Source: Escherichia coli (lineage in GTDB: Bacteria > Pseudomonadota > Gammaproteobacteria > Enterobacterales > Enterobacteriaceae). From it: 64,000 nt of DNA. The notes beneath the pieces are model-generated. The model saw only the letters and a list, made by a program, of their open reading frames with translations. It was not told the DNA's origin and made no database searches. Both the position numbers and the translations under genes were made by a program. Shown piece after piece: positions 8,692 through 12,566 of this stretch (positions within the stretch are counted from its first letter, which is position 1; the number at the start of each line of letters is the position of its first letter). The stretch is taken from assembly GCF_044324875.1 (NCBI RefSeq), contig NZ_CP172185.1; one strand, given 5' to 3'.

Positions 8692-10104
8692 TCCTTTCCT
8701 CGCTTCTTCGTACGCTGCCAGCGTTCGCAGCCTTGCCTCTTTATGATCAACTATCGGTTGCGGATAATCCAGCGTCACACCTGATTTATCTGCCCACTTC
8801 CACGGCTCATGCACCACTTTCCCTGGCACATCGCGCAGTTCCGGTAGCCACTGGCGGATAAACTCGCCTTCGCGGTCAAATTTCTCGCCCTGGGTTGTCG
8901 GGTTAAAAATACGAAAATACGGCGCTGCATCGGTTCCGGTTGAAGCGGCCCACTGCCAGCCACCGTTATTAGCTGCCAAATCACCATCAATCAGCTGCGA
9001 CATGAAATATCGCTCGCCTTCGCGCCAGTCGATCAACAAATCTTTCACCAGAAAACTGGCTGTAATCATCCGTAGCCTGTTATGCATCCAGCCAGTGCTG
9101 TTAAGCTGACGCATGGCAGCATCGACAATCGGGTATCCCGTTTTGCCTTCCTGCCAGGCCTGTAAATGTGCGGGATTGCTCTGCCACTGCACACGATCCG
9201 TCCAGGCAATAAACGGACAATGTTTACACAACGAGGGGTAATACGTCATCAGATGACGGTAGAACTCGCGCCAGATCAGCTCACTAAGCCAGACACTACC
9301 GGCCCCACCGTCCAGCGCCTGCGGCTGTTCCGCCAACAAGCGATGCAAACACTGGCGAGGCGATAACCCGCCCGTTGCCAGGCTGGCGGACAAACGACTG
9401 GTGCCTTCCACTGCCGGAAAATCTCGTTGTTGCTCATATTCTCCGGCACCGTTCTGGCAAAACTGGCGTAATTGCGCAATCGCAGCTTTTTCTTCCACCG
9501 GGAAATGCGCAGTATCGAAAGGCTGACGAGGATAATTCAGCGTAATGGATGGCGCGGGAGCTATCGATCCGCTACTACGTACTTTTGGCGCAGCGACGCA
9601 CTCCGGCATCCCTTCTCGCAGCCGTTTCAGCCAGGCGTTTTTAAATGGCGTAAAAACTTTGTACATCTCATGATTGCCAGTCATCACCGCCCCCGGCGGC
9701 AGGATCACGCTGTCATCAAATCCTTCACACACCACGTTACGCAGCGTTCTCTCAACCTGCACATCCCGCGCCCGCTCATTCACCTCATACTGATAGTTAT
9801 AAAAAAGATGAGTAACGCGGTTTTCCGCGCACACCTGATTAACTGTTTCGACACTGGCGGCAAAGTCATCCACTTCACGGAACAATAAAGGAATACCTTT
9901 TTCTGCCAGTGCTGTTTGTAGCCCGTTCAGTTGCGCATTGATAAATTCAGCCTGACGCGGCGACATATTATGCGCTGCCCACTGGCGCGGTGTGGCTATA
10001 TACAGCGCCAGCACGCGTGCAGACGAATTGCGGCAGGCGGCAGCCAGTGCGAGATTATCGTGCAGACGTAAATCCTGGCGAAACCAGACCAGATGGGTAG
10101 TCAT
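8686..10104 (-). CDS. phr: Deoxyribodipyrimidine photolyase
   Basis: ORF 8686..10143; internal start MTTHLVWFRQDLRL gives 472 aa; FAD-binding photolyase C-terminal domain. Confidence 0.9.
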   Translation of the reverse strand: MTTHLVWFRQDLRLHDNLALAAACRNSSARVLALYIATPRQWAAHNMSPRQAEFINAQLNGLQTALAEKGIPLLFREVDDFAASVETVNQVCAENRVTHLFYNYQYEVNERARDVQVERTLRNVVCEGFDDSVILPPGAVMTGNHEMYKVFTPFKNAWLKRLREGMPECVAAPKVRSSGSIAPAPSITLNYPRQPFDTAHFPVEEKAAIAQLRQFCQNGAGEYEQQRDFPAVEGTSRLSASLATGGLSPRQCLHRLLAEQPQALDGGAGSVWLSELIWREFYRHLMTYYPSLCKHCPFIAWTDRVQWQSNPAHLQAWQEGKTGYPIVDAAMRQLNSTGWMHNRLRMITASFLVKDLLIDWREGERYFMSQLIDGDLAANNGGWQWAASTGTDAAPYFRIFNPTTQGEKFDREGEFIRQWLPELRDVPGKVVHEPWKWADKSGVTLDYPQPIVDHKEARLRTLAAYEEARKGA

Positions 10105-10610
10105 AAAACTCCTGCATGGCGCAAGTGAATAATACGCGGCCAAAGTTCGAAATAACGCTGCCCTGAAAGCCAGGCGTCAGGATAAAGCGCCATATAGTGT
10201 TTGATACGCATCAGCGGCGCAAGAAGCGGTTGCTCGCCACGGCGATAACTGTCGATAAGCGCCGCCAGCTGCTGGCGTTCTGTGGAATCAATATGTGGGC
10301 GAAAATATCCCTGAACGTGCATCAAAACGTTAGTATGATCACGCCGGTTGGCAGGGTGAGAAAGCAAAACAATTACGCGTTGGCGGTACTGGTTGTAATA
10401 GTCATCCAGATTTTGCCACCGGTGAATATCTGCCACGAACGGGCCAAGTTTGCGGTACTCGGGCTGGGAATGGGCCAGAAAGACGAGTTTATAGCGGCTG
10501 TGATAATCGTTGAGTGCCCCGCGCGTTAAGCCATGTTCTTTCAGTCGATGTAACTCGTGGAGAGCGAAGATACGGATTAGGGTGCTTTCATCAAATCGTT
10601 GCTGATTCAT
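10101..10610 (-). CDS. ybgA: DUF1722 protein, upstream partner of phr
   Basis: 169-aa ORF; its stop overlaps the phr start. Confidence 0.8.
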   Translation of the reverse strand: MNQQRFDESTLIRIFALHELHRLKEHGLTRGALNDYHSRYKLVFLAHSQPEYRKLGPFVADIHRWQNLDDYYNQYRQRVIVLLSHPANRRDHTNVLMHVQGYFRPHIDSTERQQLAALIDSYRRGEQPLLAPLMRIKHYMALYPDAWLSGQRYFELWPRIIHLRHAGVL

Positions 10611-10694
10611 TACTGCTCCTGAACGGTTTACAGGAGTAAGTGTAGACGGCAGTATTGAAAAAACGAAACGAATAAATGAGATCGGTAAAGAAAT

Positions 10695-11102
10695 TCAATA
10701 ACTCATAATAAATTTCATGGTGGCGATAAATAGTTTCTTTTCTTCATCACTCATGGTAGAAGCGTTTAACATGTTGCCATAAAATTTACTGATGATATTT
10801 TTTAATTGCAGCAAATGCAAAGGAGAAAAATAGTCACTCCCGATGAGATTACTCAATACCAGCAATAATTCTCCATTATATAAATAACCTACCATAAGAT
10901 TAATCTCTATCATCTCAATTGCTTTTTGTACAGCAAGCGCTGGTAAGATATTCTGACGAAGCATTTTGGCAATATCATTTTCATCCAGTTCATCCGGTGT
11001 TTTATCCAATAAAGAGTTATACCAGTTTATTAAACCACTTTTGAAAGCGAATGAATCATATTGCAGGTGATAAATCTGTTTTAGGGTTTCTTTATTTTTC
11101 AT
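10695..11102 (-). CDS. Hypothetical protein (135 aa) in an AT-rich islet
   Basis: ORF in a very AT-rich stretch; 12 bp downstream of the 94-aa ORF on the same strand; no family recognised. Confidence 0.45.
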   Translation of the reverse strand: MKNKETLKQIYHLQYDSFAFKSGLINWYNSLLDKTPDELDENDIAKMLRQNILPALAVQKAIEMIEINLMVGYLYNGELLLVLSNLIGSDYFSPLHLLQLKNIISKFYGNMLNASTMSDEEKKLFIATMKFIMSY

Positions 11103-11114
11103 TTTATAATGTCT

Positions 11115-11399
11115 TTATTTGCTATGATTTTTCTGATTTAATTCTATATCATTTAAAGCATTTTCAAGCCAATCATCCATGTTCTTAATTTTAGCCCGCT
11201 CATACAAATCATGCACAACATCTTCATAACGCCGTCCATCATTGACCATACAATTAGCTGTATGAGGCAGAACATGTATAAAATCAGACAATATAAAACA
11301 AGCCTTTGCATTTCCAGAGTTAGCTGCAGTTCTGATATCAATCAAGCCTCTGGCAATTAATTTAAGAATAACACTAACATCTTGCATTTTAATTTCCAT
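11115..11399 (-). CDS. Hypothetical protein (94 aa) in an AT-rich islet
   Basis: ORF in the AT-rich islet, co-oriented with its neighbours; no family recognised. Confidence 0.4.
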   Translation of the reverse strand: MEIKMQDVSVILKLIARGLIDIRTAANSGNAKACFILSDFIHVLPHTANCMVNDGRRYEDVVHDLYERAKIKNMDDWLENALNDIELNQKNHSK

Positions 11400-11481
11400 A
11401 TCATCCAGTTAAATTTTAGTCGTAAATCGTCTATCTAAAAAAGATGAAATTAACATTTATAAATTTATTACAATATAAAAA

Positions 11482-11835
11482 TCAAAAATATACATCATCA
11501 GCTTCTACTGAAAACTCCATGGCTCCTAAGGCACCTAAATCAATACTAAATATGGTATCACTTTCCTTAGCACTCCCAACATAGATAAAATAGCCTAAAT
11601 CCCCATCCTGACCTATCAAAAAATAGTCAGGCTCCACTCGTTGAATATCATATGTTTCATTTCTTTCAATAAGATCAGAATAGTTATACAGATATAATAT
11701 TTCATGCTTCTTATTAGTTATTTCATAGGCCTCACTATCTTTAATTTCTTCTATTAAGAAACGTTTATACACTGGAGGAAATTTGATTGACATGTCAAAT
11801 TCAATTTTATTTATATATTCTATGATTTTATTCAT
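11482..11835 (-). CDS. SUKH/SMI1-KNR4-like protein (putative orphan immunity protein, 117 aa)
   Basis: Motifs FPPVYKRFL and DYFLIGQDGDLGYFIYVGS resemble the SMI1/KNR4 (SUKH) immunity family; AT-rich; no toxin gene upstream. Confidence 0.5.
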   Translation of the reverse strand: MNKIIEYINKIEFDMSIKFPPVYKRFLIEEIKDSEAYEITNKKHEILYLYNYSDLIERNETYDIQRVEPDYFLIGQDGDLGYFIYVGSAKESDTIFSIDLGALGAMEFSVEADDVYF

Positions 11836-12069
11836 GTTAAGAATACCTGAGCGGTTAATTATCGGTTATTGTGATGAATATATATTCGCTTTTAATTTTC
11901 AATAACTCATCACGGAAATACATATTGCTTTGTAGGCAAGCGCTAATAATACTTTATGAACCTGACTTCCGCCAGATATTCAACCTAAATATTCATGACG
12001 CAGTAATGTTTTAGAAAGCCACTAACTGCCCAGATAGTGCATCATCTACTACATTGGCGATTATACTCT

Positions 12070-12258
12070 AAATAATTCAAGTTGCAGGAAGGCGACAAGC
12101 GAGTGACAAATTCGTCAGGAACGAATTTGCCCAGTCGCAGGCTGACCTTCGGTGAGAGACATGGATGTCTCTCATTAATCCCCAGGAGCTTACATAAGTA
12201 AGTGACTGGGGTGAACGAACGCAGTCGCAGCACATGCAACTTGAAGTATGACGAGTAT
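12070..12258. repeat. ERIC (enterobacterial repetitive intergenic consensus) element
   Basis: Contains the ERIC core cccaggagcttacataagtaagtgactggggtga and the flanking gcatgcaacttgaagtatgacgagtat. Confidence 0.55.
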
Positions 12259-12302
12259 ATAAAAAACCCCTGATTCCAGTTCCTTGTGCTGCGATCCTAA
12301 CC

Positions 12303-12337
12303 AAAAAAAAACCGCCAGCGTTTCCGCTGGCGGTTTT
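12303..12337 (-). terminator. Rho-independent terminator downstream of ybfA
   Basis: Stem ccgccagcg/cgctggcgg with a 4-nt loop; 9-nt T-run on the minus strand. Confidence 0.7.
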
Positions 12338-12359
12338 CAATGTATTCAGAACTCAGCAA

Positions 12360-12566
12360 TCAGTAAAAATCACCGGTTGCCTTTTCGGCCTGATCCATCC
12401 AAACCGGTTTATCGCTGGTTTTCGACCAGACGCGATGCAGATAGCTGTAAAAGCGGGCGCGGTCTTTCCAGAAAAGCATGAAAGGCAGCGCCAGAACGCC
12501 CACTGCAACCGCATAAGTACGGCGTAAAAAGATAAGCCATGCAGGATATTCTCTGTAGAGTTCCAT
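12360..12566 (-). CDS. ybfA: Small DUF2517 membrane protein
   Basis: 68-aa [17 protein letters not shown]..., divergent from kdpF. Confidence 0.75.

Follow-up and report, generated by a model that had tools for sequence, protein, structure and literature searches.

A probable stack of orphan immunity genes in an AT-rich islet between ybfA and ybgA of Escherichia coli

The 64,000-nucleotide stretch of Escherichia coli DNA analysed here (contig NZ_CP172185.1; hereafter the window) carries at 10695-11399 two small open reading frames (ORFs), o94 (11399..11115, a maximal ORF of 94 residues) and o135 (11102..10695, 135 residues). An earlier note, made from the letters alone, had described them as AT-rich, on the same strand, 12 bp apart and about 80 bp downstream of a SUKH-like gene, and had suggested a two-gene module such as a toxin-antitoxin or stacked immunity pair. 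The layout was confirmed, the strand being minus and the distance to the SUKH-like gene 82 nt. Probably, o94 and o135 belong to polymorphic-toxin systems as orphan immunity genes independent of each other, and together with the SUKH-like gene form a three-gene stack at a site that holds an Rhs element in other E. coli strains. The stacked immunity part of the proposal was supported: o135 is a CdiI_3 member by its sequence matches, the o94 family lies behind Rhs toxins, and the neighbouring gene is SUKH-like.

Profile and structure-database matches assign o135 to the CdiI_3 family of contact-dependent growth inhibition (CDI) immunity proteins. The Pfam model CdiI_3 (PF18616) matched residues 10-85 with E = 5.9e-17 (model positions 2-79 of 95), and phmmer aligned residues 22-114 with PDB entry 5j5v_C, 'Immunity protein CdiI' (E = 1.7e-5), the identity to this solved CdiI being low. 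RefSeq names the protein 'contact-dependent growth inhibition system immunity protein'. The statement that neither protein could be recognised therefore fell for o135 and stood for o94. PF18616 is precomputed on all close o135 homologues; these were confined to proteins of E. coli and E. albertii and to the E. fergusonii-type loci. No other gene stands between this one and ybgA in any of the loci examined. [quoted passage not shown] No toxin adjoins o135 in the islet or the 64-kb window, which makes it an orphan member of its family; in E. fergusonii and E. albertii the gene upstream of CdiI_3 is a 155-residue ORF of no known family.

For o94, searches of Pfam, NCBIfam, PADLOC, PHROGs and the PDB gave no match, the single PADLOC hit (PDC-M63A, E = 0.0074) being not significant. 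A word-indexed protein search returned only Escherichia copies. An exhaustive HMMER search returned 93 cluster representatives (E ≤ 1e-3), mostly of 80-100 residues. The family alignment of 40 sequences (A3) shows R23 and W77 to be invariant and I22, D39, H42 and P45 nearly invariant (o94 numbering), with the consensus 'LLxRALLDIRxAA..(5-6)..FxLADLFHNxP...Y...L..L..RA..KG...WLxNA'. Every one of these residues is retained in o94, which scores 107.8 bits with the family hidden Markov model (HMM), and none of the 40 A3 members has a Pfam family match. With A3 as input, AlphaFold2 modelled o94 as a helical bundle with a predicted local distance difference test score (pLDDT) of 94.1; an earlier model from a shallow alignment (pLDDT 66) was not used. 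The bundle had no informative structural neighbour, and all matches of o94 in the AlphaFold database were 'uncharacterized'. A full-text search of the literature for the RefSeq accessions gave no mention of them. By the HMMER search we assign o94 to a family of ~85-residue, predicted helical proteins.

Several other features of this family were seen. Two tandem copies of the domain, in proteins of ~170-235 residues, occur in 18 of 142 members (P0074, P0077, P0079, P0087, P0088 and others). A Sel1-like repeat was considered for large proteins with 7-11 matched stretches; these were unmatched by the broader family HMM, had no Pfam Sel1 match and were set aside as spurious. The closest relatives outside Escherichia (45-48% identity) lie in small-ORF stacks (L021, 1-249; L014, 217-729), together with a CPCC Cys-rich protein, the stop of which overlaps the o94-like start, and a DUF6985 protein. 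These stacks, on short metagenome contigs, look like further immunity arrays. The closest non-Escherichia relatives in L021 and L013 had no match in complete E. coli genomes.

The neighbourhoods of the homologues support an immunity position for the o94 family behind Rhs toxins. In 7 of 10 independent contexts, an Rhs/YD toxin, or an orphan piece of such a toxin, ends 1-18 nt before the family member begins, and these toxins share one conserved C-terminal domain of ~90 residues, with the consensus '..DL..LHSPE..G.RPDL..LSD.ELL.SV.NP.N.DP..VNT.TG.V.DGN.RAYEL.RRA.DP.S.ITPDT.IP...YTPD.S.FWD'. The domain is present in L023 (7690-7975; E. coli E62), L012, L015, L016, L020, L022 and L025. The homologue lies 11 nt past a YD-shell and RHS protein with the toxin domain in a Hahella metagenome-assembled genome (MAG), behind a 1864-residue YD-shell and PT-HINT protein in L012, and behind a YD-shell fragment in L016, there within an array of Rhs fragments and small ORFs. 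In L022 the Rhs core-end motif '...GWVDPLGL' leads into the toxin domain, and the immunity gene begins 1 nt past the stop; in L025-27 a free-standing 96-residue toxin domain (E = 2e-47) is encoded 15 nt upstream, with a transposase adjoining. A single genome scan was started from the toxin side and returned two loci; in one of them, a Chitinophagaceae MAG, the ORF next to the toxin matched the immunity HMM with E = 6e-18, this ORF being outside the training set. The ~90-residue domain itself has no match in Pfam, NCBIfam or the PDB. A ParB/Srx-like toxin was considered because of its motif '..V.DGN.R.YEL..'; an hhalign comparison with a Spo0J N-domain yielded a probability of 0.8%, Pfam gave no ParBc match and PDB profile searches were empty, which left the idea unsupported.

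A complete weapon of this type occurs in other strains of the same species. A sensitive blastn search with the o94 DNA found a 68.5%-identical stretch in 100 further E. coli records. In E. coli E62 it corresponds to an 85-residue ORF, ~50% identical to o94 and matching the immunity HMM with E = 1.5e-32, which begins 1 nt past a 1497-residue RHS element core protein; the gene cluster is of the Hcp-VgrG-Rhs type. Residues 4-1257 of this Rhs protein are covered by NCBIfam RHS_core, and its last 90 residues match the toxin HMM with E = 1e-38, the HMM having been built from non-Escherichia sequences only. The toxin-coding DNA is found in 101 of 5426 complete E. coli genomes (~2%), and about 100 have the whole Hcp-VgrG-Rhs(toxin)-immunity locus. 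RefSeq lists the E62-type Rhs as WP_000508713.1, its 85-residue partner as WP_000786991.1 and the window o94 as WP_001154413.1. In all, 270 o94-like places lie in 270 records from 269 genomes. Because each record has exactly one such place, islet and weapon, judged at the DNA level, occur together in at most one genome and probably in none; one genome has two o94-like records, and the toxin search likewise has one such genome. In E. coli PapM-36-2 (NZ_CP050646.1; L024, 3483-8234) a one-base frameshift joins the Rhs toxin to the 85-residue immunity protein, and RefSeq annotates the fusion as a single 1583-residue 'RHS element core protein'.

In the window, o94 is not adjacent to such a toxin, its upstream neighbour being the SUKH-like gene across the 82-nt gap between that gene's stop and the o94 start. 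No Rhs-motif match, toxin-domain match or large ORF was found between ybfA and ybgA, and no toxin-domain or Rhs match anywhere in the 64 kb. Since no toxin adjoins it and the window has no toxin-domain match, we regard o94 as an orphan copy. As to an Rhs element at the site, neither a core gene with YD repeats nor a core-end motif was present there.

The chromosomal site is nevertheless that of an Rhs element in K-12, where the RhsC element gives the order ybfA-rhsC-ybfB-ybfO-ybfC-ybfQ-ybfL-ybfD-...-ybgA. Of 5426 complete E. coli genomes, 170 (~3%) have the whole ybfA-ybgA spacer with the islet, strain 118UI and an ST69 isolate being examples of carriers; the identity is at least 99% in 156 of the 170. 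The other 14 show ~92-93% identity and an extra ~800 bp. A divergent E. coli allele, with an o94 protein 86% and an o135 protein ~82-86% identical, also contains the three genes and keeps the 12-nt spacing. None of the 170 genomes (0/170) has an Rhs gene at this site; the match to the spacer is unbroken, or falls into two parts where IS1 or the ~800-bp segment intervenes. The IS1 copies lie inside the islet of two hospital-wastewater strains, H1 and H2 (NZ_CP146564.1 and NZ_CP146571.1).

Both ORFs are real genes. When the islet was shuffled 2000 times with its dinucleotides preserved, an ORF of at least 135 residues arose once, one of at least 117 residues 11 times, and three ORFs of at least 90 residues together never (0/2000). 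The ORFs are therefore not products of chance. Both o94 and o135 have homologues, and both are annotated coding sequences in RefSeq. The RefSeq annotation and the family alignment place the o94 start at the second ATG, and the true start is therefore probably 11387, giving a protein of 90 residues.

The three genes occupy an AT-rich islet (10640..12040, no strand assigned) at the ybfA-ybgA site. Its composition agrees with the earlier description: the G+C content is 31.1% over 10640-12040 and 29.9% over 11001-12000, against ~50% around. The upstream boundary gene is ybfA (12360..12566, minus strand), followed by a strong terminator-like hairpin (12338..12307). The downstream boundary gene is ybgA (10101..10610, minus strand), after which comes phrB, and the promoter and terminator scan found no terminator-like site between the islet and ybgA. 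Between the ybfA terminator and the islet, a stretch at ~12060-12260 is repeated, with a median of 7 copies per E. coli genome (36,733 places); it looks like an enterobacterial repetitive intergenic consensus/intergenic repeat unit (ERIC/IRU) element.

The first gene of the stack, the SUKH/SMI1-KNR4-like ORF (11835..11482, minus strand, 117 residues), matched Pfam SMI1_KNR4 with E = 2.3e-4 and, weakly, SUKH_5 and SUKH_6 (E = 0.02-0.04); it had no NCBIfam match, and some of its alleles are named 'SMI1/KNR4 family protein' in RefSeq. It is found in the same 170 E. coli genomes as the islet. Diverged paralogues of this gene or of o135 were not detected in E. coli by blastn.

The close spacing of o94 and o135 is better accounted for by the history of the locus than by a shared function. 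In contigs with the E. fergusonii-type protein and in the 14 E. coli genomes with the longer spacer, ~800 bp lie between the two genes. This segment holds the remains of an IS630 transposase, a 155-residue ORF and the final 46 codons of a toxin tail that is glycine-rich and hydrophobic. A DNA alignment of the two locus forms shows that homology ends after '...AATGATATA' and restarts at 'TCAGAAAAAT...', and in all three species TCAGAAAAAT forms the CdiI_3 gene's leader. This leader encodes the tail of o94, ELNQKNHSK*, which is homologous to, and in frame with, the MLFQKNYSKQ... extension of a 149-residue CdiI_3 form. The 12-nt spacer (11103..11114, minus strand), at which the ~800-bp indel ends, is therefore a junction where cassettes were joined by rearrangement, and it is no sign of functional coupling. 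With the last ~9 codons of o94 it makes up the CdiI_3 cassette's leader.

The E. albertii site has the order 147-residue ORF, 251-residue ORF with the same glycine-rich tail, 155-residue ORF and CdiI_3, and it has neither the SUKH-like gene nor o94. There (L008, 8734-9959) the 251-residue ORF ends in the glycine-rich hydrophobic tail (..GAVAGGAMAGLMCGPGAPVCVLIGGFVGGALAAWEMGRLWN), the 155-residue ORF follows 2 nt later, and the stop of the latter overlaps an upstream ATG of the CdiI_3 gene. In the E. fergusonii-type locus (L003, 10442-11052) only the last 46 codons of the 251-residue ORF are kept. Neither the 155- nor the 251-residue ORF has a Pfam, NCBIfam or PDB match, and together they look like another toxin-immunity module.

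These comparisons bear on the possibility that o94 and o135 act jointly against one toxin, as a two-subunit immunity complex or as a fusion made by stop-codon read-through. The two genes are in the same reading frame with one TAA and four codons between them (11099-11129, minus strand), no E. coli genome has one without the other (170 with both), and the tandem two-domain members of the o94 family show that immunity-domain fusions occur. However, the co-occurrence is confined to one inherited islet, the E. albertii CdiI_3 gene exists without o94, the Rhs-linked o94 homologues of E. coli and other phyla have no CdiI_3 neighbour (none was seen in any context examined outside the islet), and the in-frame junction is explained by the homology of the o94 tail to the CdiI_3 leader. 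Joint action is thus very unlikely, and the sequence comparisons argue that o94 and o135 are not a functional unit. At the position of the window TAA, E. fergusonii and E. albertii have CAA, inside the N-terminal extension of the 149-residue CdiI_3 ORF; one base change would join o94 and o135 in the window.

A type II toxin-antitoxin module, in which one protein would poison the cell and the other neutralise it, is less probable still, to the point of being almost negligible. The layout alone speaks for it, two small genes on one strand 12 bp apart in foreign-looking DNA. No toxin-antitoxin domain was found in either protein with Pfam, NCBIfam, PADLOC or PHROGs, nor was a DNA-binding domain of antitoxin type detected. 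In addition, o135 belongs to a recognised immunity family, the o94 homologues pair with secreted Rhs toxins, and the two genes occur apart or split by 800 bp. This half of the earlier proposal was not upheld, since neither protein matches a toxin-antitoxin, defence or phage family. Nor did the notion of a two-gene module survive: the genes are apart in E. albertii, ~800 bp separates them in E. fergusonii and in 14 E. coli genomes, and they were never neighbours in the other contexts examined, so that the pair is essentially not conserved outside this one chromosomal islet. The resemblance to type II modules is limited to the two small adjacent same-strand genes; unlike those modules, o94 and o135 have no toxin-antitoxin domains, their pairing is not conserved and both proteins are of immunity type.

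With no toxin in the islet or the window, the genes could only be defensive against the weapons of other strains, or relics. Pairwise ratios of non-synonymous to synonymous divergence (dN/dS) were 0.05-0.07 for the SUKH-like gene, 0.06-0.13 for ybgA, 0.23-0.61 for o135 and 0.35-0.54 for o94. When three alleles of o94 were pooled, 8 changes were synonymous and 15 non-synonymous, which gives an omega of ~0.46 (one-sided test against neutrality, p = 0.067). These values are compatible with relaxed selection on o94 and o135. Immunity genes typically evolve fast. Since the ORFs have stayed intact across dS of 0.12-0.28, some constraint on them is indicated.

The relic explanation holds that the genes are leftovers of a displaced or decayed polymorphic-toxin locus, unexpressed and not protective, in an islet small and harmless enough to persist. 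In its favour are the dN/dS values, raised relative to the neighbours and for o94 not significantly below neutrality; the debris in related loci, namely the IS630 remnant and the 46-codon toxin tail; the IS1 insertion in two strains; the loss, in each of the two locus forms, of the native o94 3' end, where junction sequence now stands; and the lack of a promoter signal above chance. Set against these, all three ORFs are intact in the window, in the divergent E. coli allele (86% amino acid identity) and in E. fergusonii-type loci despite dS of 0.12-0.28, purifying selection is clear in some comparisons (0.23 for o135, 0.05-0.07 for the SUKH-like gene), and o94 has kept every invariant and nearly invariant residue of its family. 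We consider this explanation unlikely, though the most credible of the three alternatives.

Several observations weigh against the preferred reading of o94 and o135 as orphan immunity genes. The dN/dS of both lies far above that of the flanking genes (0.06-0.13), which fits relaxed constraint, and the scan found no promoter or terminator inside the islet above chance. AT-rich islets are often silenced in E. coli. Truncated variants exist in databases (P0025, P0028), and 3 of the 10 contexts are without an adjacent toxin, two of them small-ORF stacks (one with a CPCC Cys-rich protein upstream) and one unrelated. The cognate toxin of o135 was not found in the islet or the window, and its similarity to the solved CdiI is remote. 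Finally, o94 is only ~50% identical to the Rhs-linked E. coli immunity protein, and immunity proteins are usually specific to their cognate toxin; for these two reasons, cross-protection by o94 is not assured.

The arrangement is an ordinary example of a well-known kind of locus, the orphan immunity stack. Orphan immunity genes and toxin-immunity modules downstream of cdi and rhs loci are a precedent (Poole et al. 2011, PMC3150448; reviews in PMC9086364 and PMC6730261). Like orphan modules of CDI, Rhs and type VI secretion system (T6SS) loci, the islet has small immunity genes without a full-length toxin, stacked, of atypical G+C content and at an Rhs-associated site, and homologues in other strains lie directly behind a toxin. 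Unlike them, the window locus is without cdiBA, rhs or T6SS genes, and its stack lies between two housekeeping genes; toxin fragments are kept at the site in related species and none in the window strain. The UPEC 536 CdiI (5J5V) is linked to o135 by the family HMM and the solved-protein match, but identity is low and no CysK-dependent tRNase or other toxin adjoins o135.

For o94, the nearest counterparts are the RhsI-type immunity proteins, which E. coli encodes directly downstream of T6SS-associated Rhs effectors (Ma et al. 2017, summary in PMC6730261). The E62 homologue, 1 nt past an RHS core protein, has this position, as do family members in several phyla. In contrast to the RhsI type, the window o94 is detached from any Rhs, and neither the immunity family nor the toxin domain is in Pfam, NCBIfam or the PDB. 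An islet of Salmonella Typhi with an orphan CdiI and no cdi genes around it has been read as protection against the toxins of rivals (Barretto and Fowler 2020, as cited in PMC9086364); that islet differs in immunity family and species, and here three different immunity families are stacked. Defence is the accepted interpretation of orphan immunity, a phenomenon established in CDI, Rhs and T6SS loci (PMC9086364, PMC6730261).

On the orphan immunity reading, each gene would give a small protein of the cytoplasm, able to bind a single toxin domain that a rival cell delivers and to block it. The o135 protein would act on a CdiA or Rhs C-terminal toxin of the class neutralised by CdiI_3 proteins, and the o94 protein on the ~90-residue C-terminal domain of T6SS-delivered Rhs proteins. 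A strain without these weapons would be protected by the two together. Toxin binding, protection and expression are thus predicted for o94 and o135 from family membership and gene position.

Beyond the locus itself, we tentatively propose that the o94 family and the ~90-residue Rhs C-terminal domain may form an undescribed pair of toxin and immunity families found in several phyla, with the weapon and the detached shield held by different strains of E. coli. Three points are new: o94 is placed in an immunity family that is not catalogued, an Rhs toxin domain, likewise uncatalogued, is recognised as the partner of this family, and among E. coli genomes the weapon and the detached shield are almost mutually exclusive. 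Annotation pipelines leave both the toxin domain and the immunity family unnamed, and at least one genome has them wrongly annotated as one protein. Two 'hypothetical' ORFs are thereby turned into testable predictions, o94 being the putative detached immunity copy for a T6SS-Rhs toxin present in about 100 sequenced E. coli. If this is true, the islet would show orphan immunity serving in nature as a defence against a same-species T6SS Rhs effector and, since the islet strains apparently are without that toxin, would offer a compact natural system in which to ask whether orphan immunity protects against same-species weapons.

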